DNA of 64,000 nucleotides from a virus. The DNA is taken from IMG/VR virus record IMGVR_UViG_3300008954_000002, positions 64,001-128,000 of that record; one strand, given 5' to 3'. Below are positions 2,556 through 64,000 of the stretch, piece after piece. The notes below the pieces were generated by a model, which had not been told where the DNA came from, made no database searches, and worked only from the letters and a program-made list of their open reading frames with translations. Within the stretch, counting starts at the first letter, position 1. Each line of letters opens with the position of its first letter. A program made the translations under genes and the position numbers.

Positions 2556-2572
2556 GGCTACCTCCTTTTGCT

Positions 2573-4162
2573 ATGGAGCTAAAATTGAAAGAGAATATTA
2601 ATAATTATTATATTCCTGAACGAGTATCAGAAGTCGATAAAGACTTCCTTACTTTTGAGGAAGATATGATATCTACATCTGATGTGCAGATGATACTTGA
2701 CATATTATCTAACAAAACCCATCTAGTAGGCAAGCTACCCAACCCTCATAATAGTATACTTCTCTATCTTACTGGTATAACAAATACTTTTGATAAAACC
2801 AAGGCACGATCAGATACAATAGATGGTAGTCCCCCCGATGTGGATGTGGATCTAGCCGCATTAGAAAGAGATAAAGTTATTCAGTGGATAGTTAATCACT
2901 GGGGAAGAGAACAAGTAGCTAATATTATTACTCATGGTACTTTTAAACCTAAGTCTCTTGCAAGAGCATACTATAGAGTTACTGAAGGTGACGGTGGCGA
3001 TCTAGCTAAGATACTTAAGATGATTCCGCCAGCAAAGTATGGCAAGGAAGCAACACTTGAAGAGATAGTAGAACTACACCCAGAATTATCTGAAGAAGAA
3101 TGCTATACAGAGTTCTATACTGCTGCACAGAAACTAGAGAATATGATCTCTAATTTTGGGATACATGCAGGTGGGTTAATAATATCTGACTTTCCTATCT
3201 CTGATGTAGTACCTATATGGAAGAATAGTAAAGCTGACGCTATTACTCAGTATGACAAGAATGAAACCGAAGAGCTCGGTCTGCTGAAGTTCGACCTACT
3301 TTCTATTGATACATTATCTATTATTAAAGATACATTGGGCCTGATAAAAAGAGATCTAGATATCGATATAGAACCATATACTATTCCAGATGGTGATACA
3401 AAAGCATACAAGATGATGAATGCTGGGCTACTTACTGGTGTCTTTCAAATGGAGACCTCTGGCAACGCAAAGAGATTATTCGAAGGTATCCAGCCACAAT
3501 CTATTAAAGAGCTATCTGATATTAGCGCCCTTAACAGACCTGGACCAGCTCAAGCTGGGCTTGATCGTACGTATATGGATAACAAGAAGAGAGGGTCGCC
3601 GCCCTCAGACCTACCAGAACCAGTTGCAGAGATTCTCAAGGGTACATACTGGACGCTTGTTTACCAAGAGCAAATAATGAATCTATGCTCTAAGCTCGCA
3701 GGCTTTACACTCCAAGAGAGTGACGATATTAGACGCGCATTAGGCAAAAAGAAGAAAGAGATCTTAGACTCTTATGAAAAGCAATTTGTTGAAGGCTGTA
3801 AAGAAACTGGTCTTGAAGAACTCTATGCTAAAAATTTATGGGAAGAACTACTAGGCTTTGCTGATTACTGTTTAGCCGGCGATACTCAAGTGCAAACAAG
3901 CGAAGGCTATGTGGCCATTGAAGATCTTATTAACAGGAACGACAGTCCCACCGTCTTATCTGTTGATAATGAAGGCAATCTCATCTATCAAGATATAGTA
4001 CAAAAACACAATAATGGCATTATGGGTCTATATGAATATACATTAGAAGACAACACTAGAGTTAAATGCACAAAGAATCATAAGTTTATGACTGCTACTG
4101 GTTCTATGATTGAAATAGACTCTGCATATAGATCTGAAGTAGACTTGTTAATAAAGGAATAA
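2573..4162 (+). CDS. dnaE: DNA polymerase III alpha, fragment 2 (catalytic palm/thumb/fingers) fused to split intein N-half
   Basis: PPDVDVD, HAGGLII, GLLKFDLL, GVFQME, ALNRPGP, VYQEQIM, DDIRRALGKKK, FADY|CLAG; ATG 2573 is the probable start but has no SD. Confidence 0.95.
   Translation: MELKLKENINNYYIPERVSEVDKDFLTFEEDMISTSDVQMILDILSNKTHLVGKLPNPHNSILLYLTGITNTFDKTKARSDTIDGSPPDVDVDLAALERDKVIQWIVNHWGREQVANIITHGTFKPKSLARAYYRVTEGDGGDLAKILKMIPPAKYGKEATLEEIVELHPELSEEECYTEFYTAAQKLENMISNFGIHAGGLIISDFPISDVVPIWKNSKADAITQYDKNETEELGLLKFDLLSIDTLSIIKDTLGLIKRDLDIDIEPYTIPDGDTKAYKMMNAGLLTGVFQMETSGNAKRLFEGIQPQSIKELSDISALNRPGPAQAGLDRTYMDNKKRGSPPSDLPEPVAEILKGTYWTLVYQEQIMNLCSKLAGFTLQESDDIRRALGKKKKEILDSYEKQFVEGCKETGLEELYAKNLWEELLGFADYCLAGDTQVQTSEGYVAIEDLINRNDSPTVLSVDNEGNLIYQDIVQKHNNGIMGLYEYTLEDNTRVKCTKNHKFMTATGSMIEIDSAYRSEVDLLIKE
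3869..4159 (+). other. Split intein N-fragment (97 aa), cyanobacterial DnaE-intein-like
   Basis: CLAGDTQVQT (block A), SVDNEGNL, YEYTLED, CTKNHKFMT (block B TxxH); ends at the stop codon. Confidence 0.95.
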
Positions 4163-4164
4163 TT

Positions 4165-4488
4165 ATGCCCGGCGAAGCACAGAGATTAAGAGCTGCTCTT
4201 TCAGCTGCTTATAATAATAACCCTGCCCAAACCACTGTTAATGTAAATCCTGATAATGTAAATGTAAAACTATATGATCTTACAAGTCAGATAGATGGCG
4301 TTACTGCCACGTTTACATTCTCTCCTACTCCAAGTGCCTTAAGTCCTATTGAGATAATTCACGATGGGCTTACCCTTAGAGAAGGAGCCGCCAACGACTA
4401 CACCTTAAGTGGTGTTACATCTATAACTCTTACGTATATACCTGTTGTAGGCTCTTCTATGCAGGCTAGGTACGCAGAACAGTCATAA
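4165..4488 (+). CDS. Small virion/fibre accessory-like protein
   Basis: QIDGVTATFTF..IIHDGL..GAANDYTLSG beta domain of a kind seen in phage tail proteins; AAGGA SD. Confidence 0.65.
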   Translation: MPGEAQRLRAALSAAYNNNPAQTTVNVNPDNVNVKLYDLTSQIDGVTATFTFSPTPSALSPIEIIHDGLTLREGAANDYTLSGVTSITLTYIPVVGSSMQARYAEQS

Positions 4489-4702
4489 CTATCAATTCTC
4501 CTTGTCAAGCTATATAAAAGCATAGTCACTTGGTTTTAAGGCTTCAGATCTATAAGATGAAGTCACATCTAAGGATATGAAAACCACGCTGATTCTTGCT
4601 GACACTCACCCCAACTCTTATGGGGTACTTGTATCTAAAGATGTATTCTTCTCAAAAGAAAATAATAATACATAATTACTTAATTACAAGGAGTAAATAA
4701 TT

Positions 4703-6436
4703 ATGGCTAAAACTCAAATTCGATCTGAAGCGATTAAACTTCAGACCGCTAAAAGATTAATTGGTGGTGTAGACGGCAGCGCAGACGCTGAAGAAGTAGC
4801 AGTTGATAGTACATACTTCGATCTTGCTGCTGTCAGCGGTACAGATACTCTTCAAATTGTAGCTGAAGGCTTCCAAGACCTAGTTGGTGCAATGTTAACT
4901 GATAATACTGAAAATGGTATTGCAGTAACTTATCAAGATACAGATGGAACTATTGATTTTGATGTCAACGATCCCATAATTTCTCTAACTGGAGCTGTTG
5001 CAGGCTCAGCGACAATGACCAATCTGGGTAATGTATCTATTACCACTACTGCTACATCTGATCCAACACTAACCCTCGATGGCGACTGTAGTGGTTCGGC
5101 AACCTTTACAGACTTAGGTAATGCTACTCTCACTGTAATAGTAGCAGATAACTCTCACTACCTAGCATCTAGCTATATTTCAGATGCAACCTCTGAAGCT
5201 ACAGCAAATGTAATTGTTAAGCGAGATGCTAGTGGTGACTTTGCAGCCAATAACTTATCAGTAGCTGGTATTACAGCAAATGGTAATATTTCAGCAGTTG
5301 ACATGACCTTATCTGGCGATCTCTTGGTTAATGGTACCCAGACTTTTATGGATACAACCAGATGGCTAGTTAAAGATAAGGACATGGTCCTAGGTGTTGC
5401 TGGTGGTGAACGTCTTGCAGTAAGTCGTACAAACGCCTCTCCATCTGTTTACTCACAAACTGCTCATGGCTACTCCACTAATGATTATATCTACATATGG
5501 GGTGATAGTGGTTCTGTTTCTGATGGTGTTCATCAGGTCACTTCTATCGACGCCGATAGCTTCAGCATTGCTGTAGACACAAGCGGAGACACTGGTTCTA
5601 AAAGCTCCAACATGTCCCTTAGTGCAGTAACAGAAGCTACTGCCAACGGCGGTGGGCTCCATGTTCCTGGTACTAGCTTGCACAAGCTAATTTACAATAG
5701 CACTAATGGCTGGGACTCTACTGATGATCTTAACATTGCCACCGGAAAGGTGTTTAAAATTGCTGGAAGTGAAGTACTTTCTGCAAGCAACCTTGACAAT
5801 GCTGTCAAGGTAGAAAACGCAAACTGGGATAGTACTACGAACAAACAACTAACAGTTACAAATGGTGGTACTGGACTACAAGCTGTTACACAGGGCGATA
5901 TTTTGTATGCTAGTGCTACAAATACCATTAGTGCTGCAGGGCCAGGATCTGAATCTAATGTACAAGCTTGGGATGCTGCTTTGGATGACTTTAGTGGTCT
6001 TATCCAAACCCCAAACAAGATCCCCTACTTTGACAGTGCTACCACTATGGATATGTTTGACTTCAAAGATGAAGATAACATGTCTTCTAACTCTGATGCG
6101 GCATTAGCCTCACAACAGTCTATCAAGGCATATGCTGATAATAGTGGTGGCGCAGCCTCCCTATTTGCACATAGTACTGTTGGTGCTGGTGGCGTAGCCT
6201 CTGGGGACACAACTGCACACGGCGCAACCATGGTTGCTGGCCTAGATGCCAGTGGCATTTCTAATGTGGGTGGCGATGAAACAAAGTATATGGTCTTTCT
6301 AGACGGTATGCTACAAGACAAAGGTGCAAACGATGACTTTAGTCATGTCTATGACAACGATAACGCGCTTACCATAAAATGGCAAAAAACACTTTATGAA
6401 GGACAAACAATTGTCATTCGTGGCGCTACAGTCTAA
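4703..6436 (+). CDS. Tail fibre / virion appendage protein
   Basis: Gly/Thr/Asp/Ser-rich with repeats (ISLTGAVAGSAT/LTLDGDCSGSAT), IVKRDASG, GDLLVNGT, GGTG, TAHGY module; AAGGAG SD. Confidence 0.8.
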   Translation: MAKTQIRSEAIKLQTAKRLIGGVDGSADAEEVAVDSTYFDLAAVSGTDTLQIVAEGFQDLVGAMLTDNTENGIAVTYQDTDGTIDFDVNDPIISLTGAVAGSATMTNLGNVSITTTATSDPTLTLDGDCSGSATFTDLGNATLTVIVADNSHYLASSYISDATSEATANVIVKRDASGDFAANNLSVAGITANGNISAVDMTLSGDLLVNGTQTFMDTTRWLVKDKDMVLGVAGGERLAVSRTNASPSVYSQTAHGYSTNDYIYIWGDSGSVSDGVHQVTSIDADSFSIAVDTSGDTGSKSSNMSLSAVTEATANGGGLHVPGTSLHKLIYNSTNGWDSTDDLNIATGKVFKIAGSEVLSASNLDNAVKVENANWDSTTNKQLTVTNGGTGLQAVTQGDILYASATNTISAAGPGSESNVQAWDAALDDFSGLIQTPNKIPYFDSATTMDMFDFKDEDNMSSNSDAALASQQSIKAYADNSGGAASLFAHSTVGAGGVASGDTTAHGATMVAGLDASGISNVGGDETKYMVFLDGMLQDKGANDDFSHVYDNDNALTIKWQKTLYEGQTIVIRGATV

Positions 6437-50332: not shown

Positions 50333-53300
50333 TTACTCTGGTATTCCCGTCATTCGATTGGCTCTTAGTCCAGTCCAAGGCGTCCGCCATATTGCATCTT
50401 TCCAAGCGGTCCATTCTCTTGTCACGTCATCGATACCCCACATAGTATCATCTATTATATTGGTTACATCTCCAAAGATATTGCGCCAAATAGCCATTGG
50501 GTCACCTTGTTGTAGGCCAGACACAATTGGTCTACCACCCTTTGTCAAAGGAACAACAGCTACTGTCTCTTCTTGAAGACACTTAGCGAAAAGAATAGGA
50601 CCTGCAACAAGCCAGCTAGCGCCTAGGTTATTAAAGACATTATCCAGCTTGTTCCATGCCCAAGTGCCTCCCTTTGCAGTTCCCCCAATCCCTATTGCTT
50701 TAGCAATGCGTGAGCTCCAGATACCGTTAGCAGCTGAGATACCTACCTTTCCAAGCGCTGCACTTGCAAGCCCTCTAGTCCCAAAAGCTAAACCCGTAGT
50801 TACTCCACCGACAAGCAATGCTGCTGTAAGACTTGCCATGTTGTGGCCTGGCAGTCTACCTTCTGTAAAACCACCTGTTATATCTGGATCGTCTGGAAGC
50901 ATTTCGCTCATAAACTCTTCGAAATCAAATCCCTCTTGAAAGATGCCTCCATACTTCTTAGCTAAGCGCGCCTTGTAGTCGGGATCGGTAACTGCCGACT
51001 CCCACCAGTGACTACTCCCACCCCCATCTCTAGGAATACCATCAGGGCCTACAGTGCCTGTGCCTTGCTCTTTGTCTCTAACGGCCATACAGTATAGCTT
51101 TAGTCCTTCTAGAACAGGCCAAGTAGAAATTTCATTAGCAAAGACTACTGCGTTAGGCTTTATCTCAGTTAAGAAACCTGTTTCATATGAAAACATATGT
51201 ACTACTTGCTCTACCTCAATAGGGCCAAACATATCATTATAGTCATCTAGTAGATAGCAGATATCCCAAGGCTTGATCCTAGGGTTGCCTAGCACTAGCA
51301 ACTCACCACGGTACATCTTTTTAAGACCATACATGAGCGAGCTCATACCATATCGCATTGCGGCTTTCTTCCCAATGACATTCGAGAAAGATACTGGCAG
51401 TACGTTTAGGTCTGGCTCTTTAATAAAAGAGCTTGCCTTCATAGGAAGTGTTTTGCTAACTAACCGATCTCTATCATGATACAAAACAGAGACTGCGTTA
51501 ACAACATTGTGCTCTGAACCCATGATGTTGTTGGATACAATATCTGTTTCAGATCTAAGCATATGGTAACGCCTAAAGGGTACAAATCTATTTTCAAGAC
51601 CTTTAAGATACTCTTCCATTACCTCATTAGTAAAGCGTAAGTTTAGATGGTCAAGAGAAGCACTTGCAGCGTATGACTCTGGCTTCTTTACATAAGATTG
51701 GAAATTCCCATCTACATCTGATATATCTTCAATATTATTAGGGTTGAAAGGATTAAAAGATTCGCCTAACTCGACATAAGATTCTGGCAAACTGCTACTA
51801 GAATCAATTCTTTCTTTAATCTCAAAGGAAAAAGCATCTTCTATTTTCTTCAAAGCAACTGCACCATAAAGCTTTTCGTAGATATCTCTATTAATGTTGC
51901 CATCTTCTAAATGCTCTCTAAGAGTGTTCATCCTATCTACAAAGTTATTAGTTGCGGGCTTAGACCAATACCTTTGACCTGGAACACCAAAGAACATTGT
52001 ATACCTAAGAGATGTACCATAAGGTCTTGGTCCATATATCCAGCCAGGATGCCTTAGAGACATCTCATGGAATAAATCCCATATAGTAGAGTTCTGTACT
52101 TGGTAAAGGCATTCACTTGGCAGCAATTGTTTGTTAGTTTGCCATTTGTCAGGTTGAGTCCATGCATCGTACCATTCACCTACCTTATCGGCTGTACCTG
52201 GGACACCCATAAGAGCTCCTGCAAAGCCTCCAGCGACCACAGCACCAAGGCGTTTTATAGTACTCCACTCCCAAAACTCAAACTCTAGGGTCATGTAATC
52301 CTTAGGATTGGGAGGGTAAAGGTTATCGTCTTGAGGGCTTAAGAAGAGCGATGCTTTCTTTCTAGTGTAATTGCGTTTGACTTCGCCAATCGTAATATCA
52401 TAACCCCAACCTAGTACATCAGCTGCAGCCTGCAACCCAATACTTGCTGCAGTCGCAGCTAGAAAAGCTCGACTATTAATAGCAAGTACTCTTCCAAAGA
52501 TATTAAAGCCACTGCCAGCGATCTGCTGTGCCCCTTGGAAAAAGGTAAGCCCACCAAGATTTGCACCTGAATATCCGAGCACTAGACCTCTGACTCGTGA
52601 TGTCTCACTTTTGGCAAGGGTAGTAAATGCTGTTTCTATTTCTGCAAACACTGCTGTCTTTTCAGCCTTCGTGGTAGTTCCAGCAAGTTTTGTAAGCAAT
52701 GGTCTCAGCCCTGCCTTCCTAATGCTCTCAGAAGAAACACCCCCACTATGGAGAAACTTATTCACTACGCTGCCCCTGCTACCGCCCTTGGCCATGCCTA
52801 TAGCCGCACCTATTCTTTGGTTGATACCTTTAGCTGTGACAGCTAGATTCTTGCCAGCAAATCCTCCCCATGTTGAGCCTCCTCCTATCTTTGCAGCTGC
52901 TCCACCCATTAGTCTGCTTACTATCCCTTTAGATGCGCCTGCAGCCGCGCCTGCTCTGCCCATAGGAGTTATAGAAAGCGCTGCAATACCAATTGCTATG
53001 CCTGTAGATATAACTGGATGAGTCTTCATAAACTTCATCATTTTTCCTGTGAAGCTAAACCAACCCCAGAAATCTTTTTCTGAATAGTCTACAAAATCCA
53101 GCCTAGCGTCTTTAGACTCTCCGTACTGAAAGAGTTGTCCTATTTTCCATCTACCAAAATGAAGGACTTCTGGCTGCAACATCATAGAGCTTAAAAGCTT
53201 ATGAGTGGTTTCGAATACTAGTGCTTCATCATTCTCGCCATAGCGACCATCATTTCTGCCTTTGATATCAGCTGTTAGCTCGACTCCAAAAGATTGTACA

Positions 53301-56300
53301 GTCAGCTCGCATAGATCACCCTGACTGTTCCACATGACATCCACTACTCTGCCAGAGATAAGCACTTCTAACATATTAGGATCATTAGAATATCCAGCCC
53401 TAAGTTGAATATTCATTCCAGGGCGCATTACTACGGCAGAGAATGGTTGGTGTCTACCGTCCTCTACCTCGGGAACATTGTTATGCGCTTGAGTGCTGTC
53501 GTTTAACTCCTTTATCTTTGCAGCTCTTTCTCTATCAAAGTAATCTAAATCGACAACGGCTTCTCTTTTAGTGCCGTCTAGAGAGCCAGATACATTTTGC
53601 AAAACAATAGTTGCTGTATCAGCTGCACTTTCTCTACTCTGAACAACAGTAAATTCTTTTACTCCATTATAAGTATAGAAATCATCAAAATTAAGAAGCC
53701 TGCTATTGAGCTCATCTTCCTCAATAAGCATTAATTTAAAGGTTGGGTATGCACGCCTTAGGGTAAGCTTCTCAGAGATGATGTCATGAGCAGAATCATT
53801 AGTAAGGTTTTTGAGCGATTCAGGATCAAAGGCATGTGTATACGTATCCATCGCGGCAAGTCTAGTATCTTCAACAGAGTCTACTGTATTAGTAGCTGTC
53901 TCATCAGTGAGATACTCTCCTAAGTAACCAGCTTTAGAGCCAAACATCGCCTCACTTTTAGCAACTTTCTGAACAAGATCCCGATATACATTTGCATCTA
54001 CTCTCGCTTGATCACTGCCAAGGATTCCATCTGTAAGCGAAAGGTAGGGAATAAGTGGCTTAAGTCCGCCCTCAGTCGATATTGTCTTAAGCCTTGCCAG
54101 AACTGTCTTTGCATTATCTCTTGCCTTCTCCTGCTCTTTGGTACCTCTAGGCATATTCTTAATTTGCTCTGATAGCTTTTTGATCTGTTTCTCTACATTG
54201 GCAGATCGCTGTACGAAGCTGTCTGGATCCCAAAAAGCAACCTCCATAGGGTTGAGCTCTGCCTCTTTCAGGTAATCCCACCTGCCCCCTATCTTGGTAA
54301 GAGAATCTACATCATCAGTTCCGGTTGGATGATGAACTAGTGCAGACATAATAGGCGATTGAGCAGTAGCTCCCGTAGTGAGCCCCTTGTCATCTTTGCT
54401 GCGTATGCCTGAACCCTGCATCTTCTTGAGATGGTCATAAGAGCCGTTTATCTGTGCAGCTAAATTGTCTTGTAAGTCTTCTACAATTGCTGCGCTTACT
54501 GCACCTGGAGCATCTTCGTAAATGCTCCACATATAAAAGTCTGGATTAGTAGCATGTAGACGATCTGGATAGTAAGGGTGAGCAGGCAAATCCATATCTG
54601 GGTAACATTGAATACCAGACCAATTTGCAACGCCACCACTAAGATCAGTTGTAGCCAACTCTTCTAGCCCAAACAGTGATAGCAAAGGCATGTTGCTTAG
54701 CAATCTATCTGCTAGATCAACCAATCCAGAGCGTATCTTTTTAATCTTGTTTTCTTCATACTGGATTGAGGTCTTTATAGGGGGCAATGTAGTCCGCTGA
54801 TAAGTATAGTTGCCTTGCTCAACGCTACCTTCAGATTGTAGATAACGTGGCGGTAACGACCACCATGCAAGGGCTGCTAAGTGCCCTTTAAAGCCTAAAA
54901 AGCTAGTATCTTCAACACTCTCTATGAACTTTTTAAAGGGAGCCAGTATAGTATCTGAAGCACTCATTAGAATCTGATCATGCAGCGGCATGATGTCATT
55001 AATATATAGTTGGACTACAGTCTCAACATCAGCCTCTGCTTCCTTTCTATTGTTATCTATTGTGGTTGTTCCTTCTCCTGCCCAAAAGGGAACATCAGTG
55101 CTACCGTCACTGTCTATAGAGCCAATAAAATGGTCAAACATAGTGGGCTTATCATTTCTTCTCAAGATCTGCTGCCACTGGCTGCCGTCTCCTCTTCTGC
55201 TCTCCATAGGCGTAAGGAAGTTGACTGCACTATCTACAGCCAATGCTGTGTTATCGATAGCGCCAAAAGCTATGCGTTTGATACCCCTCCATGGGCCACT
55301 CATTACAACAGAAGTGGTGTGTTTAATGCCTACATATCCAAACCCAAGGCCATCATCAAGTCGTGCCTTGAACTCTGCCTGTGTGCTCCACGGGTTGACT
55401 CCTAAAGATTTTATCTCAGCAGGAGCATAAGCGCCAAGGTTCTTGCTTAGCCAAGCGCCAACACTGTCAGCTTTTAACCAATCGCCATATCTCCACTTAA
55501 CATAAGCATACATCCAGTAGCCAAAACGCTGCCACATCTCTTGCTCTAGATTAGGAAGATTGTATAGCTGTTCTTTAAAGTGTTCTTCAGTAACTGCTCC
55601 TGGAACATTAGGTTCTGATACAAGACAGTTAGCTTCCTGAATAAGTCCAAGTAAGAAAGCGTGGTAGTGTCTGACAATTTCTATATCTACATCTTGTAGT
55701 CTTGGGTTTGCATAATGAAATTGAGTTACATCTACAAAGGAGGCGTCAACAAGAGTCGCTTTAATAGCTCTACTCTCAATATCTTTAATAATTCGTGCAG
55801 ATTCTGCCATGCTGTGCGCTTGATCTATGCCTCCAAGTGAAAGAGCAGCTCTAGGAGTCCCAAGCGGATCAACAGGATCAATATAGCCTGCAGCTTCTAG
55901 CTGAGCAGTAGTCAACTCAATATCACTAGTTAAGTCACCCCCTGTCCTATCCAAGTAGTCTGCCATAATGCTTTTGTTAATTACATACGCATCTTGTTCC
56001 GTATCCTGAATTAACTCTCGTATCCCAGCATCAGAATTCCCAACATCATATAGATCGGCACCCCTACCTGGCACTTGGTACTGCTTAGCTCTTTCAAAAG
56101 CCTCATCACCGAAACTAGTTCTTATTTCTTTCTCTGTCATCATGAAGCTATCGCTACCATCTGCTCTTATAAATGGAGCAGCACCTACAGCTTCAAACAT
56201 GTTGACTTGTTTTAAAGCAGTCTCACCAAAGAGCTGAGAGTAGAACTTGTCTTGACCAGTTACAGATATGTCTTGGTCAAAGACAGCCACTCTTGACGCA

Positions 56301-59221
56301 TACCTCTCGGATATGCCAGCATCCATACGACCTCTCATTAGTTGTTCTGGCATGTTCTCCGAGTCAAACTCAAACTGTACCTCGTTTGCATTTTGCAAGA
56401 GTAATGCTGCAATACCTTCTTCTGTAAGCTCTAGGTTGGCTAATGCGTGCAGTACTTTCTTGCGTCGATCATCGATATCAGGCGAAGCGGTCGGTACAGC
56501 AATGATCTCTTCTTGTACATAAGGATTAGTTTCACTTACTTCAAAAACCATTGAGGATAGGCCAGGATTCCCTTCCTTTGTTTCGCAAGTAGCCCGAGTG
56601 ATACACGAACGCTTACGTAGTGCTGATTGATTACTTTCATTAATCTTGTAATCGGAGTCACTATATGTGCCGAACAATCTAGTAATAAAGTTGTCTGTAC
56701 ACAATGCATGCCCATCAAGTACGGGTCTAAATGCACGAGCATTATGCTGTAGCTTCTGACGCATTTCCTCCATAGATCTGCCGGGCAAAGGTATGCCTGT
56801 TAGCTTGTCATCTATTAAGGCAAACTCCATCATGTAGGATGGCTCAGTTGAGCCAAGATGCTGATGCGTAGGAAACTCAGAACCTAGAATTGGAATGCTG
56901 GCAATGTTGTGCCGCATACCGCCTGCAACGCCAATGAGTACAGCACCATCTCTAAGCAGAATCTTTTTAGTATTGAGAGCGCCATACTCTTCAGTGCCAC
57001 TTACATCGGACCAGTCAAGGTCATCATTGCCTGTGAGTATCGACAAGGTAATAGTACGACGCCAAACATTTACTACATCGCTGCGAGCGTCATAGTACAT
57101 GAAGCCAAGATTTGCTAAGTCTTTGTAATCGTTAAGTATCCCTTCTGCTTCTTCTTGAGTTAACCCTATGCTATCAAGCTGATCCTCGGTTAGCAGAGTC
57201 TCCTCTTGTCCATCTGGCTCTACTACTGTAATAGCTGCTGCTTCTCCAAGCTCTGGATCTGCGGTTGTCGGAGTACTGGTAGTGCTTGAGCTGGGATATG
57301 GGGCATTCTTCTTGGCAAGCTTTTGATCTTCAGAAGTCATGCCCTGGATTACATCCTGCATATATTGCGTATTAGGAGTTTGCCCATCGCGGGCATTTAG
57401 CCACGGAACAGGATTGAAAGGCATCTCCGACGTATTCTCTTGTAACTCAAAATGTAGGTGAGCCCCGGTTCCATAGGTTCCAGACAAGCCTATGGGTTGT
57501 CCTCTCGTTACTACAGCTCCCTTGTTAACATCCGTCTTAGATAGGTGTCTATACACACTTGTCATATTGAGATCAGAGTGGAGTATATACAAGACGCTAC
57601 CCGTAGCAGAGACTACTGTTCCATCCTCAACTGCATATATAGGTGTTCCCTCTGGGATAGGGATGTCGATCCCTTCGTGAGGTCTTTGCACATGCGCAGC
57701 GGGGTGATCCCAACGCCAAGAGAAATGATCAGATAGTCTAAAAGCATTTGGATCATCGTCAACTAGGCAAGGCCTATGCAGTATTAACTTGTGCATGTCC
57801 TTGCGCCGCCACTGGCTTAGCCGAGTGTGACGACCTTCTCCAGGAGCATAGGTTCTACGTTTATGTTGTCCGCGTATCTCTATAGCAGGCAGAGATGAGG
57901 TAGCGCCAGTTCTTTCTTTGCTTTGAGTTTCAACTGCTGCCTCTTGTAACTTCTTCTGCGCATCGCTGAGCTTGGCAATAATATCTGGGGTAAGGTTGAG
58001 AGTTCTATAATCTTCGTAATGAAAGATAGTTCTCTTCATTGTTGAGAGGAATGTCGACACCCATCGTTGCCTAAGTACTGGAGGTACTCCTCCAGTGTGA
58101 AGTCCAGTCACATATCCGGTAGCCTCGTCCATGGAGGTAAAGGAGGCAACGCTTTTATATAGAAGACCTGCACCTGTAGTAGAGCCACCCGGAAATTCAA
58201 AAATGTCTTGGTAGACATCAATCCCAAAGTTATCATATAAGGACTTTGCCTGTAGCGAGTTAATAAATCTTACATAGATGTTGGATAGGGCGGGCGTCAC
58301 TACCCATGCACTAGCTTGCATCCTGCTTGGGAGTGGTAGCAGATCAAAGACGCGACCAGCATGAGTTCTCTCCATGTCGTGTAGGGTCATAGTCTTTGAA
58401 GAGCTTCGTTCAATAGCTTCAAGAACAACGCTAAATGTTTCACGGGCTGGGTCTTCTTGGCGAGGACCCTCTTCCCCTGCCCTGTATTGGCTTTGGTTAA
58501 AGTTAGAGAAACCCTCTACACCTCTAATGATTGTTGGTAGCCATCCCTTCTCTCTCCCTTCGTCTTCGCTCTTCTCTGTGTACCATGAGTTAGCTTCCTT
58601 TTCATGCCCAACCATACTCTCTATGAAAGGGCCAATCCAAACAGGGATACTATATCTAACTGTATCTGTCACCGCAGACGAAGAGGACCCCTTAGATCCT
58701 GCACTAGGCACTTTTATGCTTTCTGTTGCCCACTCTCTTCTAAAAAGGAAGTTGACAGCATAGGGAGCATAATTAAACCAGCGCAGATCTATCTCGCATG
58801 CAAAAGTGCCTGGCGTTCCCTTCATAGGAGAGACATTGATAGAAGACATTGTAAAGGCCATTTGCTGCCAGACTTCCCAGCGTGGGACAATAGTCTCACG
58901 TAGATAGTCGTTCTCAATCCAACAGAAGGGAGAGTGCTTGAACTGGACTATCAGCCTGTGCAGAGACAATAGCATGTCTGGTGTAAAGATAATATTAAGG
59001 CTTACCTGTACAAGCCCATGCCCGCTAGGAACTTTAGTAGAGACTCTTGAGCGTAGGGTGTTCCATTGCCAATACATATCCTCCTTACGAACAGAGATCT
59101 GAGTAGGCGGAATTACTAGCTCTATGTCGTTGATGGTAAATACAGCATTAGGATCCGATGCGTCTTTACCATCCCGATATTCCCAGCTGCGGTCGGCTGC
59201 GCCTCTAATAATACCTGCCAT
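50333..59221 (-). CDS. Giant (2962 aa) tail/baseplate hub protein with an M23 peptidase domain
   Basis: HEGID..GTPIYAV..YRHL..HLHFE (M23, ~57400-57690); hub-like IQLRAGYS..SGRV and GNPRIKPWD..VEQVVH; hydrophobic Gly/Ala segments. Confidence 0.85.
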   Translation of the reverse strand: MAGIIRGAADRSWEYRDGKDASDPNAVFTINDIELVIPPTQISVRKEDMYWQWNTLRSRVSTKVPSGHGLVQVSLNIIFTPDMLLSLHRLIVQFKHSPFCWIENDYLRETIVPRWEVWQQMAFTMSSINVSPMKGTPGTFACEIDLRWFNYAPYAVNFLFRREWATESIKVPSAGSKGSSSSAVTDTVRYSIPVWIGPFIESMVGHEKEANSWYTEKSEDEGREKGWLPTIIRGVEGFSNFNQSQYRAGEEGPRQEDPARETFSVVLEAIERSSSKTMTLHDMERTHAGRVFDLLPLPSRMQASAWVVTPALSNIYVRFINSLQAKSLYDNFGIDVYQDIFEFPGGSTTGAGLLYKSVASFTSMDEATGYVTGLHTGGVPPVLRQRWVSTFLSTMKRTIFHYEDYRTLNLTPDIIAKLSDAQKKLQEAAVETQSKERTGATSSLPAIEIRGQHKRRTYAPGEGRHTRLSQWRRKDMHKLILHRPCLVDDDPNAFRLSDHFSWRWDHPAAHVQRPHEGIDIPIPEGTPIYAVEDGTVVSATGSVLYILHSDLNMTSVYRHLSKTDVNKGAVVTRGQPIGLSGTYGTGAHLHFELQENTSEMPFNPVPWLNARDGQTPNTQYMQDVIQGMTSEDQKLAKKNAPYPSSSTTSTPTTADPELGEAAAITVVEPDGQEETLLTEDQLDSIGLTQEEAEGILNDYKDLANLGFMYYDARSDVVNVWRRTITLSILTGNDDLDWSDVSGTEEYGALNTKKILLRDGAVLIGVAGGMRHNIASIPILGSEFPTHQHLGSTEPSYMMEFALIDDKLTGIPLPGRSMEEMRQKLQHNARAFRPVLDGHALCTDNFITRLFGTYSDSDYKINESNQSALRKRSCITRATCETKEGNPGLSSMVFEVSETNPYVQEEIIAVPTASPDIDDRRKKVLHALANLELTEEGIAALLLQNANEVQFEFDSENMPEQLMRGRMDAGISERYASRVAVFDQDISVTGQDKFYSQLFGETALKQVNMFEAVGAAPFIRADGSDSFMMTEKEIRTSFGDEAFERAKQYQVPGRGADLYDVGNSDAGIRELIQDTEQDAYVINKSIMADYLDRTGGDLTSDIELTTAQLEAAGYIDPVDPLGTPRAALSLGGIDQAHSMAESARIIKDIESRAIKATLVDASFVDVTQFHYANPRLQDVDIEIVRHYHAFLLGLIQEANCLVSEPNVPGAVTEEHFKEQLYNLPNLEQEMWQRFGYWMYAYVKWRYGDWLKADSVGAWLSKNLGAYAPAEIKSLGVNPWSTQAEFKARLDDGLGFGYVGIKHTTSVVMSGPWRGIKRIAFGAIDNTALAVDSAVNFLTPMESRRGDGSQWQQILRRNDKPTMFDHFIGSIDSDGSTDVPFWAGEGTTTIDNNRKEAEADVETVVQLYINDIMPLHDQILMSASDTILAPFKKFIESVEDTSFLGFKGHLAALAWWSLPPRYLQSEGSVEQGNYTYQRTTLPPIKTSIQYEENKIKKIRSGLVDLADRLLSNMPLLSLFGLEELATTDLSGGVANWSGIQCYPDMDLPAHPYYPDRLHATNPDFYMWSIYEDAPGAVSAAIVEDLQDNLAAQINGSYDHLKKMQGSGIRSKDDKGLTTGATAQSPIMSALVHHPTGTDDVDSLTKIGGRWDYLKEAELNPMEVAFWDPDSFVQRSANVEKQIKKLSEQIKNMPRGTKEQEKARDNAKTVLARLKTISTEGGLKPLIPYLSLTDGILGSDQARVDANVYRDLVQKVAKSEAMFGSKAGYLGEYLTDETATNTVDSVEDTRLAAMDTYTHAFDPESLKNLTNDSAHDIISEKLTLRRAYPTFKLMLIEEDELNSRLLNFDDFYTYNGVKEFTVVQSRESAADTATIVLQNVSGSLDGTKREAVVDLDYFDRERAAKIKELNDSTQAHNNVPEVEDGRHQPFSAVVMRPGMNIQLRAGYSNDPNMLEVLISGRVVDVMWNSQGDLCELTVQSFGVELTADIKGRNDGRYGENDEALVFETTHKLLSSMMLQPEVLHFGRWKIGQLFQYGESKDARLDFVDYSEKDFWGWFSFTGKMMKFMKTHPVISTGIAIGIAALSITPMGRAGAAAGASKGIVSRLMGGAAAKIGGGSTWGGFAGKNLAVTAKGINQRIGAAIGMAKGGSRGSVVNKFLHSGGVSSESIRKAGLRPLLTKLAGTTTKAEKTAVFAEIETAFTTLAKSETSRVRGLVLGYSGANLGGLTFFQGAQQIAGSGFNIFGRVLAINSRAFLAATAASIGLQAAADVLGWGYDITIGEVKRNYTRKKASLFLSPQDDNLYPPNPKDYMTLEFEFWEWSTIKRLGAVVAGGFAGALMGVPGTADKVGEWYDAWTQPDKWQTNKQLLPSECLYQVQNSTIWDLFHEMSLRHPGWIYGPRPYGTSLRYTMFFGVPGQRYWSKPATNNFVDRMNTLREHLEDGNINRDIYEKLYGAVALKKIEDAFSFEIKERIDSSSSLPESYVELGESFNPFNPNNIEDISDVDGNFQSYVKKPESYAASASLDHLNLRFTNEVMEEYLKGLENRFVPFRRYHMLRSETDIVSNNIMGSEHNVVNAVSVLYHDRDRLVSKTLPMKASSFIKEPDLNVLPVSFSNVIGKKAAMRYGMSSLMYGLKKMYRGELLVLGNPRIKPWDICYLLDDYNDMFGPIEVEQVVHMFSYETGFLTEIKPNAVVFANEISTWPVLEGLKLYCMAVRDKEQGTGTVGPDGIPRDGGGSSHWWESAVTDPDYKARLAKKYGGIFQEGFDFEEFMSEMLPDDPDITGGFTEGRLPGHNMASLTAALLVGGVTTGLAFGTRGLASAALGKVGISAANGIWSSRIAKAIGIGGTAKGGTWAWNKLDNVFNNLGASWLVAGPILFAKCLQEETVAVVPLTKGGRPIVSGLQQGDPMAIWRNIFGDVTNIIDDTMWGIDDVTREWTAWKDAIWRTPWTGLRANRMTGIPE

Positions 59222-62200
59222 TAGTCACCCATCAGTCTGTCAATATAGTTAGGAGTCAGTGGTCTCCTAGTGTCATTAATTCGTATTGAGCCAGAACCTC
59301 TAATGCCTGCAAGAAAATCCATAGAAGCTCTTACTCCACTAGTAGAGGGTACCTCACCTCTAATTTGATAAGCGTTTTGTCTTGAGAAATAAGTTTCTCC
59401 AGTGTTTACAGGCCTATGCATCATATCATTGTGTGGTCCCCCACCCAAGCTTTCTGGGGTGGGCATGTTGTCTTCTCTTGGTGCAAACAGCTCTCCTCTT
59501 CGTATAGCTGTTGCTACTCCAGAGTCCATTACTTCACCAGCAGACAACATTGGAGTAGGTGAATATCCTTCACTTCCCATAACTCCTTTAAGTGCTAAAG
59601 TAATACCTACACCTGCAGCTACGGGACCAAGGAATCGTTTGTCTAGCTTCTGTGTAGCGCTTGTAATGCGATTAGTGGTTGCAGCTATCTCATCCATGGT
59701 GCCTGCAAGACCAGTAGTAGTCTCAAGGGCAAGTCCTGCTTCCATAGCATGTCTTTGTTCGACCTGAAGAGCAAAGGCTCTCCGTGTTGCAGCTTTCTCA
59801 CCTTTGAACATTTGGGCATTCTGATAGGCAGTCCCACTAAATTCTGCACCTGTCTCGTGTACATAGCGCGCAGCCATACGGCCAGACTCAACTAAGGAGC
59901 CAACACTAACCGCTCTGCCTTCTTGCAGCAGTGACTTGTTGAGCTGCTGCATTATTTTGGCTTCTTCTCCGGTACCGCCCAGCCCCCCCAGTTGCTGGGC
60001 TAGCATATCTTTATTGAAGCCAGTAATTCTAAGACCTTCCTTCGTATTTATGGCTGAGCCTTCAAAGATGTCTTCTAGAACTTTCTGGTACTTAAGTGAG
60101 CCTGCTTCAGATCCACCAGTTCGGATCATCTCATTAGTAGCTTCAATAAGATCTCCTGCCATATTTTTATAATGTGCATGGTGTTTGGCTTTGATTGCTA
60201 CAATCTCTTCTATAGCAGTAAGACCAGCTAGCCCCTGCTGGGCAGCACTATATCCCATCTCTGCAGAAGTTTGTACTGTCCCCAACCTAAGCTTGTTAAG
60301 CGCCACATCAATTCTGCCAATGTCTTTAGCAGTAGCTTCTTTCATAACCTCATGATAGCGAGCTTCTTGAGGTGAGAGCTCACCTAATGCGCTTACTTCC
60401 ATTTGAGCAGTCTTCTTGATAACTTCTGAAGCCTCCTCCATGATAGCGCCTACTTCAGCCCTATACCTAAGGGCTTCATTTGAAAACATCTCTTTTGCTG
60501 CAGAGGATTTCTGGAAGTAACCACTAGTGCCTTTCTTTGCAGAGGGAAAGAACAGCTGATAGTTATCGCCATCAAAGTCACCAATCATTCCAGCAGCAAA
60601 ACTAAGGTTTAGCTTTATGCCCTTCTTCCTGTTGTTGTAGTGGACATCTACTTCAAAGTTGGGAATATAAACCTTGCCTCCGCCCTCTGTCGGTGCCAAA
60701 GCACTTATGTTTCTAGCCATGCTCTGGAAGAAGTCACCCATTGCTCCCCCTGCCTTCCGTCTAAGCCCTTTCTCTGTGCCAGGAAGCGCCATCCGTCTCA
60801 TCTCTTGGAAGCTAGATGGCCTCCTACCTGTAGCAGCCTCAAACCTAGCAAGAGCAGCTTTACCTTCTGGAGTGCCTCTAGTGAACTTGCCAAACATTAC
60901 ATCCGCCCGACCTGTTTCAGGTGCATATCTGAATGTCTGGGCAGGGGCTACATGCCCTGGGCCAAGCACTGGATCTCGACCTAGGATAGTTTCAGTTCCC
61001 TCTGTAAGTCTCGCTTCCATTCCAAGGAAGTAAGACTGGAATCGAGATCCCATTTCTTCCATGGCAGCACCCTTAGCTTTCCCACCTGTCATACCTACCG
61101 CCTCATAAGAAGCAGTAGCTCCACCCATGTATCCACGCATTGAATCTAGAAAGCGTTGTGTATCGGCAAAAACCGCACTGCCACTAGAGCGCTTAAAAGC
61201 AAGCTGGGTCCGTGACAACTGTGCCTTGGTAAGCTCAGTGGTTGGAAATTCACCTGCTATCTGAAGACTAGCACCCAACCCATAGGAAGAGCCTCTAAGC
61301 TTTCCTCTTAGGACACTATTGTAAGTATTCCCAAATAGCTCACTAATGCCTGCCTTCCATTCGCGCAGTAAGTCGGCGTTTGCACCCGCGTCCACAGACT
61401 GCCTAATGGTATTCAAGTTGTCGGATAGAAGATGTATCTTTCGTGTGTACTCCCCATGTATTGGCTTTGGTCCCTCAGCAGTTTTAATTTCAACACCCCT
61501 CATAAGTGCCATAGTGTTACCGCCAGCAATTCTAATTTGTCGAGTTCCAAGTGCAGCTTCTGCAGCTCTTCCTGTCTTATCTCTTACTCCACCAAGGTCA
61601 AGTATAAAGCCTTCCTTATGCTGTGCAAGCAATTCGGTCATGGCTCGTGTATCACGCGATCCTTCGAGAAAGGCGTCTACGCCTATAGTAGTAAGCTTTT
61701 GGGATGCTTTATATCCAGCAACTACTCCCTCTCGTCCACTAAGCGTGAGCTGCATCTTGGAAAGATCCTGAACAATCTTCAAGTGTTCAGCTGCTCCTCT
61801 TTTACGAGCAAGAACCATAGCCATAAAGTCGTTGGCCTCATTAGCGGGCATTCCGAGATTAGCTACTTGATGCTGAAGGAACTGGTAATAGCGCGGCTCT
61901 ATAGAAGACTCTGCTGATCGAAGTATCTGAGAAAGTGGACCTGGAGTAATAGTATCAGCACCAAGAGCTGTTCCTCTCTTAGCTGATGCGATAATTTTCC
62001 CAGCAAGAGGCCCTGCTTCTCCTTTGATAAGGTTAGCCACTGCTGTCTGTGCTTCACCCTTTGCACCAAACCCATATAAGTCTGCGTGCTTGTAAAGCCC
62101 AGCCATAACCATGCCCATCTGCCCGGTTCTTGCTTCTGCATTAGGCAGTGCAAGCATTTTCTTCAAGGTAAGGCTTGCCATGTTCTCAAGATAAGCCCGG

Positions 62201-63999
62201 TCTCTAGCTACCTTTGACATGCCCTTATAGGCTGCGTCAGGGAGAGCGTCCTTATCCTTATTAATGGTGTTGAATAAACTATTCCAAGTTTTGTCTTTTG
62301 TTCCATAGCCCGCCATGAGACCCATACCGGTAACCATCTGTCTAGCTACTGCTCCTGAACCCTTCTTGAGCATGCCTCCACCAGAGAGCATTGTCTGTTC
62401 TGCTCCAAGCCCCAGCGCTTGGACCTCGCTAAGAACCCCGGCTCTACCCAGCATCTCGCGTTGCATTTCCGGTGTCATTCCCTTAGTAAAAGATTTTGTA
62501 AGTGTCGAGAAGGCTTTGGCAGAACTCGTATCTATAACTACGCTGCCACCAAAATGAATCCTAGGTGTACCCATAACATTAGAGGCACTCTCAAATGCAA
62601 GATTAAGCTCTTGCATGCCTGTGTAATGTGCAAGCTCTGCTCCTTGCCCTATCTGAGAAAGAGTATTGCCGTACTTGCCAAAGAACTTAGCTATCTCTTT
62701 CTCACCACTCACACTAATCTTACCTGCTCCAGAAGACCAAGCAGTCTGTCCTTCAAGAAGCTCATTGAGCAGCTGGGTAGATGGAAGATCCAATGCCGCA
62801 ACGTCCAGTACAGACTTCTGTATTGCTTGCCTAACTCTTGCCTTGCCTCCAAGCCAAGCTTCACCTGGCCCAAGAGAAAAGACATTCTTACCACTAAGAT
62901 CCATGACGATAGCTTTATTCATACCACCTGTTAGACCATTAGACCACCCTACGTTTTGGCCAAACTGCTGAAAGGTTCTTGATGAGCCGAGTGTACTTTC
63001 TACTGGATTTGCAGGCTGGACAAACATGCCTTCCCTACCAGTAACCTGCCTAATACGCATTGTTGCTGGTAGTGTACCTCGATCTGTTAATCCAAGTGGT
63101 GTAATTTGGCTTAGAGGACTGTTGGCACCTAGTCCAATTCGCGTCCAAGAGCCTCCGCCGGGAAGCCGCTTTACTTCATGGCTGCCACCAATATCAAAAA
63201 GACCTCCCTCTGCATACGCAAAATACTTTCTAAGCTCAGTCTGTGCCTTTAGATCAAGAGCGTCCCACCCAGCGATAGTCATGCTTGAATGACTAATAGC
63301 TTGTTGTGCTAACAGGTGCCCCCTCATAGGAGAAGAACCCGGTATTGATACAGCCCTGCTTTGCGATGTGCCAAAGCTCCGTTGGAATTTGCCAACAGTA
63401 TCTGCATTAATCTTGCTTGCATTGCCGCCAACAGCTTTCAGTCTATTGAGAAAGTCATTGGCAAAGAAATCAGTTACACTCCCGATGGCACCTGCCTTCT
63501 TAAGGCGACCGATACTATTTTGATCCCAGACTGCTGCACCAGGAGCACCCGTCTTTCTAAATTCGTTTAACAGCTTTGTTGCATCTGCAAATAAAATATC
63601 AGCACTATACTGTGCAGTACTTTGAGCACCTACTCTAAAAACAGGAACGCCACTTGGGCTGTTCAGGCTTAGAGGTATGCTTGCTCTGAAGGTACTACGG
63701 TTGCGCCCCTTGTTATATATGTGGGCATAAAGATCATCTCCTTGCCCCTGCATAATCCTGACCTCGCCAGTGCCCCTCATTGCTTTCTCAAATTGCCCCT
63801 TCCATGCTGCTATCTTGGGAGATAGTTCTCCTGAGAACTCAGTGAAATTAGGGTTGAGTCCTCTTAGATTATACGTAGGAGCCTGTAGCTGCTCTCGCAT
63901 TCCTTGGTTTCTACCCAGCAAACGATGGAATGTAGCTTGGGCTTCTGGAGTGCCACTCTCTAAAACCGTATTCACAGTACTCTGTACTATTTTGGCTGC
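59221..63999 (-). CDS. Large structural-operon protein with two-barrel RNA polymerase motifs (5'-truncated by the window edge)
   Basis: AGMIGDFDGD (DFDGD at 60565-60579), ILGRDPVL, LRGKLRGS; frame is open to the window end. Confidence 0.75.
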   Translation of the reverse strand, partial: AAKIVQSTVNTVLESGTPEAQATFHRLLGRNQGMREQLQAPTYNLRGLNPNFTEFSGELSPKIAAWKGQFEKAMRGTGEVRIMQGQGDDLYAHIYNKGRNRSTFRASIPLSLNSPSGVPVFRVGAQSTAQYSADILFADATKLLNEFRKTGAPGAAVWDQNSIGRLKKAGAIGSVTDFFANDFLNRLKAVGGNASKINADTVGKFQRSFGTSQSRAVSIPGSSPMRGHLLAQQAISHSSMTIAGWDALDLKAQTELRKYFAYAEGGLFDIGGSHEVKRLPGGGSWTRIGLGANSPLSQITPLGLTDRGTLPATMRIRQVTGREGMFVQPANPVESTLGSSRTFQQFGQNVGWSNGLTGGMNKAIVMDLSGKNVFSLGPGEAWLGGKARVRQAIQKSVLDVAALDLPSTQLLNELLEGQTAWSSGAGKISVSGEKEIAKFFGKYGNTLSQIGQGAELAHYTGMQELNLAFESASNVMGTPRIHFGGSVVIDTSSAKAFSTLTKSFTKGMTPEMQREMLGRAGVLSEVQALGLGAEQTMLSGGGMLKKGSGAVARQMVTGMGLMAGYGTKDKTWNSLFNTINKDKDALPDAAYKGMSKVARDRAYLENMASLTLKKMLALPNAEARTGQMGMVMAGLYKHADLYGFGAKGEAQTAVANLIKGEAGPLAGKIIASAKRGTALGADTITPGPLSQILRSAESSIEPRYYQFLQHQVANLGMPANEANDFMAMVLARKRGAAEHLKIVQDLSKMQLTLSGREGVVAGYKASQKLTTIGVDAFLEGSRDTRAMTELLAQHKEGFILDLGGVRDKTGRAAEAALGTRQIRIAGGNTMALMRGVEIKTAEGPKPIHGEYTRKIHLLSDNLNTIRQSVDAGANADLLREWKAGISELFGNTYNSVLRGKLRGSSYGLGASLQIAGEFPTTELTKAQLSRTQLAFKRSSGSAVFADTQRFLDSMRGYMGGATASYEAVGMTGGKAKGAAMEEMGSRFQSYFLGMEARLTEGTETILGRDPVLGPGHVAPAQTFRYAPETGRADVMFGKFTRGTPEGKAALARFEAATGRRPSSFQEMRRMALPGTEKGLRRKAGGAMGDFFQSMARNISALAPTEGGGKVYIPNFEVDVHYNNRKKGIKLNLSFAAGMIGDFDGDNYQLFFPSAKKGTSGYFQKSSAAKEMFSNEALRYRAEVGAIMEEASEVIKKTAQMEVSALGELSPQEARYHEVMKEATAKDIGRIDVALNKLRLGTVQTSAEMGYSAAQQGLAGLTAIEEIVAIKAKHHAHYKNMAGDLIEATNEMIRTGGSEAGSLKYQKVLEDIFEGSAINTKEGLRITGFNKDMLAQQLGGLGGTGEEAKIMQQLNKSLLQEGRAVSVGSLVESGRMAARYVHETGAEFSGTAYQNAQMFKGEKAATRRAFALQVEQRHAMEAGLALETTTGLAGTMDEIAATTNRITSATQKLDKRFLGPVAAGVGITLALKGVMGSEGYSPTPMLSAGEVMDSGVATAIRRGELFAPREDNMPTPESLGGGPHNDMMHRPVNTGETYFSRQNAYQIRGEVPSTSGVRASMDFLAGIRGSGSIRINDTRRPLTPNYIDRLMGD

Positions 64000-64000
64000 A

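Follow-up and report, generated by a model that had tools for sequence, protein, structure and literature searches.

Why would a gene that carries the signature motifs of RNA polymerase (RNAP) large subunits sit among the tail genes of a large, uncultured marine phage? The question arises at the end of the 64,000-nucleotide stretch of viral DNA analysed here (hereafter the window), i.e., bases 64001-128000 of the 161,098-bp virus record IMGVR_UViG_3300008954_000002, where a minus-strand gene (G000:C1:123221-128488, window 59221-64488) runs past the window edge and encodes, from a GTG start, a protein of 1,755 amino acids (aa; P0002, hereafter the target). An original prediction, drawn from the letters of the window alone, had proposed a packaged, single-chain two-barrel RNAP encoded inside a tape-measure-like structural gene. 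According to our analysis, the target very probably folds like a two-barrel RNAP and has kept its active site intact, as judged from residue conservation and a predicted structure, and its full reading as a virion-delivered early transcriptase is the explanation that we favour, with appreciable reserve.

Active-Site Motifs and Their Conservation

The reading frame visible in the window (59221..63999) was open at its 5′ end; the complete open reading frame (ORF) was recovered, and its translation contains all six motif strings reported earlier, at the places where they had been read (all from the translation, minus strand):

59221..64000, minus strand: in-window part of the target gene (residues 164-1755 of 1,755)
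63046-63066, minus strand: ATMRIRQ (residues 475-481)
about 62854-62931, minus strand: GGMNKAIVMD..LGPGEAW
62491-62520, minus strand: AKAFSTLTKS (residues 657-666)
61288-61311, minus strand: LRGKLRGS (residues 1060-1067)
60964-60987, minus strand: ILGRDPVL (residues 1168-1175)
60565-60594, minus strand: AGMIGDFDGD (residues 1299-1308)

While a word-indexed search with the target returned 7 homologues, a profile of its core (residues 425-1465) run against 1.84 billion cluster representatives retrieved 192 proteins, 141 of them at E <1e-30, with lengths mostly between 1,650 and 1,830 aa and up to 3,265 aa. For the conservation counts, 111 full-length representatives of the family (clusters at <=50% identity) were aligned with MAFFT; these share only about 20–30% identity with the query. 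The two motifs on whose conservation among homologues the original prediction had staked itself are nearly always kept: the aspartate triad DxDxD (D1304, D1306, D1308) is found in 110/110 aligned representatives, and the RxP motif is represented by R1171 in 107/111 and P1173 in 109/111, followed by H or N at position 1179 in 101/111. On the beta side, where the matches had been called weak, the positions concerned actually rank among the best conserved of the family, with R478 in 109/111 and Q481 in 110/111, and with a K-x6-K lysine pair (K658 107/111, K665 106/111, enclosing F660 109/111) whose spacing equals 7 in 102 of 104 cases. Two glycines of the GKLRGS string (G1062 103/111; G1066 107/111) and R866 (110/111) behave likewise, and further near-invariant positions are K709, E864, K1383/E1384, E1428, K1433 and K1435. 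Judging from these counts, the motif matches exceed chance, and the retention of such a set of charged residues at about 20–30% identity argues for catalysis.

RxP and DxDxD lie between 110 and 1,493 aa apart (median 128), a spread that reflects insertions within the catalytic barrel. Insertions of hundreds to about 1,400 residues between the two motifs were observed in L012:2361-9254 (P0008), P0017, P0023, P0031 and P0084.

Outside of the core, the hydrophobic Gly/Ala-rich segment noticed earlier near the C-terminus is present and has a comparable equivalent in 83/111 family members, while a second Gly/Ala-rich hydrophobic segment lies near the N-terminus of the target (residues 33-51). The extreme C-terminus forms a conserved module of its own:

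59578..59634, minus strand: C-terminal hydrophobic Gly/Ala-rich segment, putative membrane segment (residues 1619-1637; Kyte-Doolittle 1.62 over 19 residues)
59224..59391, minus strand: conserved C-terminal module with D1739, R1741, P1743 and Y1748 (107, 103, 100 and 92 of 111, respectively)

At the sequence level, the family stands apart. No family in Pfam or PHROGs (tape-measure profiles included) matched the target protein, and PDB sequences yielded nothing relevant and no RNAP match, either with the target (phmmer) or with the family core (hmmsearch), even though they include 8H2M/8H2N, i.e., gp96 of phage P23-45, to which sequence homology was likewise not detected. Moreover, a tblastn of the target and three divergent family members against 50,697 GenBank phage records found no match, nor did the PF05183 profile match the target; over the whole genome, this profile touches only one other protein (P0010, see below), and weakly (13.4 bits). 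Protein-atlas feature searches with the target and the upstream 1,387-aa protein gave weak leads only, and the language-model neighbours of the target include minor-tail and tape-measure clusters at weak scores (0.83). As far as these searches reach, the target founds a large family without sequence link to any known polymerase.

Predicted Structure of the Core

An AlphaFold2 model of residues 425-1465 (1,041 residues, built with 45 sequences) reached a mean predicted local distance difference test (pLDDT) of 86 and a predicted template modelling score (pTM) of 0.86. When it was compared to the PDB with Foldseek, about 47 of the top 50 chains were RNAP large subunits, none at E <=0.001, and the assignment needed both this enrichment and VIA-align, which ranked QDE-1 first among the Foldseek candidates (7y7t_A, Z 10.7, 341 aa, root-mean-square deviation (rmsd) 4.3, model 48-1037). 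An exhaustive search of 48,161 PDB representative chains, independent of Foldseek, returned two-barrel RNAPs as its top 18 chains; it gave Z 10.8 for QDE-1 (7y7p_A, 366 aa, rmsd 4.4), 10.2 for plastid beta, 10.1 for RDR2 and 9.9 for P74-26 gp62 (318 of 592 aa), then 7.7 over 331 aa for P23-45 gp96 and 5.7 for phi14:2 gp66 (380 aa alignable). Finally, all 10 nearest family sets in an ESM-Atlas shape search were RNAPs, among them single-chain Rpb2_6+Rpb1_2 fusions from phages (TM 0.51 by target over 602 aligned aa).

These matches partition the model in an orderly way. Second-largest (beta-like) subunits of bacterial, archaeal, eukaryotic, Pol I, vaccinia, phiKZ and AR9 RNAPs align to model 1-436 (Z 8-10), largest (beta′-like) subunits of archaea and eukaryotes to model 494-1041 (Z about 8), and the single-chain enzymes QDE-1, RDR2, P74-26 gp62, P23-45 gp96 and phi14:2 gp66 over the whole model. 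Designed double-psi beta-barrel (DPBB) proteins and the DPBB domains of VCP-N align to model 640-918 (Z about 6), two of the designed ones (7dww_A, 7dbo_B) to 642-892. The original prediction stood or fell with a DPBB around DFDGD, and one is indeed predicted: GKLRGS, RDP..H and GDFDGD all fall on its strands and loops, with the DxDxD loop between helix 873-876 and strand 885-889 of the DPBB-aligned barrel. The order of the motif regions is that of a beta′ barrel, i.e., a strand ending in R, a P-x-L-x-x-x-H loop, a strand, an insertion, two or three strands, a short helix, the DxDxD loop and a strand. The chain would therefore be read as an N-terminal region, a beta-like barrel with the lysine pair, a helical connector, a beta′-like barrel with DxDxD and a bridge-like helix, the parts of which are as follows:

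63034..63066, minus strand: conserved loop R478, Q481 (plus G484-R485), N-terminal to the first barrel (model 51-61)
62473..62922, minus strand: first DPBB, beta-like (DPBB-B), residues about 523-672 (model strands; beta-like subunits Z 9-10)
62491..62520, minus strand: K658-x-F660-x4-K665, the lysine pair, candidates for the basic residues in the active site of DPBB-B (conservation)
61309..61908, minus strand: helical connector of ~200 aa in clamp position, residues about 861-1060 (model helices 441-635)
60547..61311, minus strand: second DPBB, beta′-like (DPBB-A), with two helical insertions, residues about 1060-1314 (model strands 638-652, 741-763, 848-870, 885-889)
61288..61311, minus strand: GKLRGS, first strand of DPBB-A, cf. 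beta′ GKRVDYS (model strands 638-640, 643-652)
60952..60987, minus strand: R1171-D-P1173 ... H1179, cf. beta′ NRxPTLH (conservation)
60565..60582, minus strand: G1303-D-F-D-G-D1308, predicted metal-binding aspartate triad (conservation)
60385..60504, minus strand: 40-residue helix after DPBB-A, candidate bridge helix, residues 1329-1368 (model helix 905-944)
60094..60372, minus strand: helical region past the bridge-like helix, with conserved K1383/E1384, E1428, K1433 and K1435 (conservation, model)

The R478/Q481 loop possibly corresponds to the NMQRQ region of beta. The connector contains the conserved E864-P865-R866 and aligns with helical bundles, among them an archaeal RNAP clamp fragment (3qqc_A, Z 6.0). 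Beyond DPBB-A, the beta′-like and QDE-1 alignments run past the candidate bridge helix to model 1037-1041, and the following helical region (60094..60372) is a putative site of trigger-loop-like function. Altogether, the conserved motifs, the model and the PDB matches support the single-chain two-barrel RNAP proposed at the outset.

Genomic Context and the Tail Slot

The genome is organized in two halves. The plus-strand half is devoted to replication and early functions, with a split DnaE, a primase-helicase and an intein-bearing ribonucleotide reductase, as well as Lon-like AAA and tubulin-like proteins, while the minus-strand half encodes the terminase, the portal (with about 32–38% identity to its counterparts in Bacillus phage 0305phi8-36, Moorella phage MTATph1 and Acinetobacter phage ME3), the protease, the major capsid protein and the tail sheath. 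Within the latter half, the order is sheath, tube, tube paralogue, three small proteins, the 1,387-aa protein and the target, followed downstream by a 2,962-aa M23 peptidase protein, a small protein and a baseplate wedge protein. The locus is thus the tape-measure/hub slot of a myovirus, i.e., a phage with a contractile tail. As had been noted, the target stop codon overlaps the ATG of the 2,962-aa gene (TAATG):

50333..59221, minus strand: 2,962-aa protein, translationally coupled to the target, bearing an M23 metallopeptidase domain (residues 514-599) and two hydrophobic segments

The C-terminal region of this neighbour matches the PHROG 'endolysin' and large virion-protein families, and it is likely a hub, cell-wall-piercing, lysis or tape-measure-like component. 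The qualifier "tape-measure-like" applied earlier to the target holds for its position, between the tail tube and chaperones and the baseplate hub, and not for its domain content, since no tape-measure domain was found in Pfam or PHROGs. Three giant genes share the slot, any of which may measure the tail.

The same arrangement (sheath, tube, 4 small genes, a protein of ~1,400 aa, the target, an M23 protein of ~3,000 aa) is kept in 7/7 metagenomic relatives and in ME3. In 0305phi8-36, the positional counterparts gp145 and gp146 are virion proteins by mass spectrometry (GenBank note), and they lack DxDxD; no family-profile match was obtained in this phage. A polymerase is therefore not obligatory in this tail slot, so that either the slot predates its polymerase or the polymerase was lost in 0305phi8-36.

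Other features of the genome were noted in passing. The DnaE-type DNA polymerase III alpha is encoded in pieces by at least 2 ORFs, with intein remnants, and the class II ribonucleotide reductase (1,393 aa) carries intein and LAGLIDADG endonuclease domains (both under the entry window 506-6436 (+) and L004:15151-19332 (+)). A paper on 'moraphages' (PMC12619734) was considered as a description of this lineage and rejected, those phages being T4-like with a sigma factor.

Cultured Relatives

The gene occupying the target position in ME3 (vB_AbaM_ME3) is gp036 (L017:19173-23984, NC_041884.1 33172-37983), a protein of 1,603 aa annotated as hypothetical and lying between gp035 and the gp037 peptidase. 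It features K-x-F-x4-K at 632, RxP at 1174 and DHDQD at 1217 (RxP-DxDxD spacing of 43 aa), and both of its halves are Foldseek matches of the target model in BFVD. A local hidden Markov model (HMM) of 111 members gave no significant score against ME3 gp035-037 or 0305phi8-36 gp145-147, so the link is one of synteny, motifs and Foldseek only, and gp036 is best described as a candidate polymerase of this kind in a cultured phage. A further ME3 protein of 798 aa (BFVD A0A172Q0S6; NC_041884.1 minus strand, ORF start 226849) is closer to the target model than gp036 is (Foldseek E 3.6e-7), although it is devoid of DxDxD; it could be a paralogue that is RNAP-like but inactive, or else a beta-like piece. 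Weak BFVD matches of the RNAP model include two large proteins, A0A7J4_2 from Microcystis phage Ma-LMM01 (E 1.8e-4) and A0A075BUT7_2 from MaMV-DC (E 2.7e-2); these Microcystis myoviruses have genomes of about 162–169 kb.

Regarding previous inventories, the published survey of viral two-barrel RNAPs combined PSI-BLAST with a [RK]xP-x(20-100)-DxDxD filter, and its supplementary files do not mention ME3, 0305phi8-36 or the Microcystis phages. Because the spacing in the present family (110-1,493 aa) falls outside of this 20-100 range, motif surveys of that kind would miss it. A comparative study of jumbo phages reported encoded RNAPs only in group 1 and in two phages of group 3 (0305phi8-36 and Clostridium phage c-st), with ME3 in group 2.2 and not among the RNAP-encoding phages.

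A Second Polymerase and AT-Rich Cassettes

A six-frame scan of the genome for DxD[GA]D in long ORFs yielded one other strong candidate, P0010 (952 aa, G000:C1:1849-4707 (+), i.e., L002:1849-4707), which lies outside of the window, at the early end of the genome. It carries TRYP...GDDDGD and has no Pfam match above cut-off, while its AlphaFold2 model (pLDDT 80) resembles QDE-1 (Foldseek E 6e-14, Z 19.7), P74-26 gp62 (Z 17.4) and gp96 (Z 11.9). By its model, P0010 thus qualifies as a second two-barrel RNAP, of QDE-1/YonO-like type. Its homologues occur alongside the target family in two relatives, one with a complete genome of 183.5 kb and one that is 73% complete, and both of the complete genomes examined encode members of the two families; searching once more with a profile for relatives of P0010 brought no additional sequences, and the P0010 family profile found nothing in ME3 and 0305phi8-36. 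In the 183.5-kb relative, the P0010 homologue (L041, G003:C1:10819-13485, minus strand) shows two in-frame TGA codons, possibly due to recoding, an interrupted gene or sequencing errors. A recent duplication linking the target and P0010, such as proposed for the two enzymes of P23-45, is unsupported, hhalign detecting no similarity between the two families. As for other transcription factors and enzymes, sigma-70 region 2 was not found in the genome, and a search for T7-type RNAPs had no match, but its controls failed too, so that it shows nothing.

The region around the record ends (G000:C1 plus strand, 160307-161098 and 1-4783) contains short cassettes in which a GC-rich hairpin and a T-run are followed by TTTTTATTTTAATGG, a 15-nt AT-rich motif. 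Six plus-strand copies occur at <=2 mismatches (1220, 1457, 1804, 160307, 160779, 160979), of which the one at 1804 is located 45 nt before P0010, and there are two further copies, one truncated at base 1 and one looser (near 4755). Elsewhere in the genome, there are two loose matches only, compared with 1.5 in shuffled genomes. A variant is found twice upstream of the P0010 homologue in a relative. These cassettes are candidates for a pre-early promoter/terminator set, and assigning them to either polymerase is speculation. The 'direct terminal repeat' of the record is an exact 119-bp overlap; it could have arisen as a k-mer artefact of the assembler, from a circular or permuted assembly, and need not mark the true physical ends.

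Proposed Role and Alternative Explanations

Because of the position of its gene, its tight coupling to tail genes, its hydrophobic segments and its late co-expression with tail proteins, incorporation of the target into the virion and ejection from it would be the most economical reading. The target would be made late alongside the tail proteins and incorporated into the particle, most likely in the tape-measure slot of the contractile tail, beside the giant M23-peptidase protein. On infection, it would be passed into the host, where its templates would be a small pre-early gene set at the genome end, including the gene of P0010, to which later transcription would then fall. The target may be anchored at the entry pore by its hydrophobic segments near the N- and C-terminus, in which case transcription would be coupled to DNA entry. 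This account as a virion-delivered early transcriptase is probable in our view. A bolder version, in which a hitherto unrecognised, widespread ocean family of RNAPs is built into the contractile tails of 0305phi8-36-like myoviruses as one of the three giant proteins of the slot, fired through the tube, anchored in the host membrane by the terminal hydrophobic segments, reading AT-rich pre-early cassettes during DNA entry and activating a second two-barrel polymerase of unrelated sequence, is put forward tentatively, as a possibility that we would not yet bet on.

Several points weigh against a virion-delivered early transcriptase. The target has no sequence-level similarity to any RNAP family, its assignment being built on a predicted structure and motifs; the Foldseek E-values of the core model in the PDB are all above 0.001, and Z values of 8-11 are moderate for a model of 1,041 residues. 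Its activity and its presence in the virion are both deduced indirectly, placing it in the tail lumen is guesswork based on gene order (with no tape-measure domain detected), and the syntenic proteins of 0305phi8-36, the nearest well-studied relative, lack DxDxD. Moreover, a folded enzyme of ~190 kDa with a connector of ~200 aa would have to pass a narrow tail tube, a passage that P23-45 gp96 is thought to achieve thanks to its flat, clamp-less shape. Finally, the TTTTTATTTTAATGG motif could serve the host RNAP instead.

Some of these points are shared by other explanations. At face value, the fold and the active site would equally suit an RNAP that is never packaged and acts from the tail operon in very late transcription or in the synthesis of RNA primers, and the 0305phi8-36 proteins without the motif indicate that the slot needs no polymerase. 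Yet, in every relative the gene lies within the tail and hub genes and is coupled to them, an enzyme made only with the late structural proteins would come too late to drive that infection's own programme, a separate RNAP is already encoded in the early region of this genome, and both the hydrophobic segments at the termini and the conserved C-terminal module fit an ejected, membrane-inserting protein, so that we consider this option unlikely. Less likely still, in our estimation, is that the target would be a structural tail or ejection protein of RNAP descent, in which the fold was kept for architecture or DNA binding without any polymerisation. The tape-measure slot, the weak language-model neighbours among minor-tail and tape-measure clusters (0.83), the annotation of the best BFVD match as a 'Minor tail protein' and the 798-aa ME3 look-alike without DxDxD, which shows that inactive relatives can exist, all go in that direction, but the aspartates, RxP, the lysine pair and other charged residues are near-invariant across more than 100 lineages at ~20–30% identity, which points to selection on catalysis and not on a scaffold.

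The last alternative, to which we give slightly less credit again, keeps a virion-delivered two-barrel polymerase and changes its chemistry, either to RNA-dependent RNA synthesis (as for QDE-1 and RDR2) or to DNA synthesis (as for archaeal PolD). QDE-1 and RDR2 do have the top structural scores, and for QDE-1 itself both RNA- and DNA-templated activities are described (PMC9508822). PolD, however, is not among the top matches of the target model, and a phage with double-stranded DNA evidently needs early DNA-dependent transcription. YonO, a single-chain two-barrel enzyme of phage SPbeta, acts as a DNA-dependent RNAP. So do phi14:2 gp66 and P23-45 gp96 and gp64 (PMC10770324; PMC7824862).

If the target is indeed a virion-delivered early transcriptase, a group of large marine phages, and probably ME3 too, would be partly independent of host transcription; the group is currently described as having no or one RNAP. 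On the bolder version above, delivery of transcription by the tail would be common practice among long-tailed phages and not the curiosity of a single Thermus siphovirus. With at least 192 sequence clusters in metagenomes, the family is also an extreme case of divergence and insertion tolerance in two-barrel polymerases, and ME3, being cultured, provides an experimental handle on it.

Comparison with Known Systems

The crAss-like enzymes had initially been brought in for comparison, but phi14:2 gp66 (PDB 6VR4) reaches only Z 5.7, below both P23-45 and the QDE-1-like enzymes, and a crAss-like affiliation was set aside on this ranking. This protein is likewise a large, virion-packaged, single-chain two-barrel RNAP with a DxDxD-type motif; it is the weakest single-chain match, belongs to podovirus-like phages and has no sequence similarity to the target. 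The best structural matches are QDE-1 and RNA-dependent RNA polymerases of eukaryotes (RDRs; PDB 2J7N, 7Y7P, 7W84; PF05183), at Z 10.1-10.8 over 366-368 aa, covering both barrels in the same domain order, whereas the target has no PF05183 match, features insertions in its barrel (RxP-DxDxD 110-1,493 aa) and occurs in another biological context.

Among phage enzymes, P74-26 gp62 and P23-45 gp64 (PDB 8F5M, 8F72) share the minimal single-chain two-barrel fold with the target, but they are small, early, non-virion enzymes, while the target is 3x longer, late-encoded and provided with terminal hydrophobic segments. YonO and the YonO-like enzyme of 0305phi8-36, phage single-chain two-barrel RNAPs as well (PF05183), correspond to P0010 and not to the tail-module target. 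The 0305phi8-36 enzyme is a clear PF05183 match (E 1e-20, 1,246-aa frame; L018, NC_009760.1 209484-211547, minus strand) in what is the nearest studied relative by portal (32% identity) and tail synteny. The virion RNAP of N4 is a functional analogue, giant and injected with the DNA for early genes, yet of the unrelated T7-like (palm) fold (PMC7824862).

The closest functional precedent is P23-45, in which the tail-fused virion RNAP (vRNAP) gp96 transcribes pre-early genes from AT-rich promoters, the non-virion RNAP (nvRNAP) gp64 being the product of one of these genes (PMC10770324). Like the target, gp96 (PDB 8H2M/8H2N; PMC10770324) is a single-chain two-barrel RNAP with DFDGD, encoded in the tail module and associated with membrane segments and a metallopeptidase, and both genomes have a second two-barrel RNAP among their earliest genes, non-virion in P23-45. 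The differences are mostly architectural. P23-45 is a siphovirus, whereas the phage studied here has a contractile tail; gp96 fuses polymerase, tape-measure, membrane and metallopeptidase modules in one chain, its RNAP being the N-terminal ~1,100 of 5,002 aa, whereas the target is a separate gene of 1,755 aa with its catalytic centre at residue 1304 and the M23 peptidase in the overlapping neighbour. Membrane-like segments are found in the target chain itself, as in gp96, and no tape-measure domain was found there; the model keeps a helical connector of ~200 aa, whereas gp96 is clamp-less. Moreover, gp96 and gp64 cluster together, while the target and P0010 have no profile similarity. An RNAP of this kind (single-chain, two-barrel, associated with the virion and encoded among the tail genes) is already known from one experimentally studied case (P23-45, 2024), and the target suggests the same logic in contractile-tailed phages. 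What sets the target apart is the contractile-tailed lineage, the separate gene, the connector, the insertions in the barrel and the lack of sequence membership in any known family.

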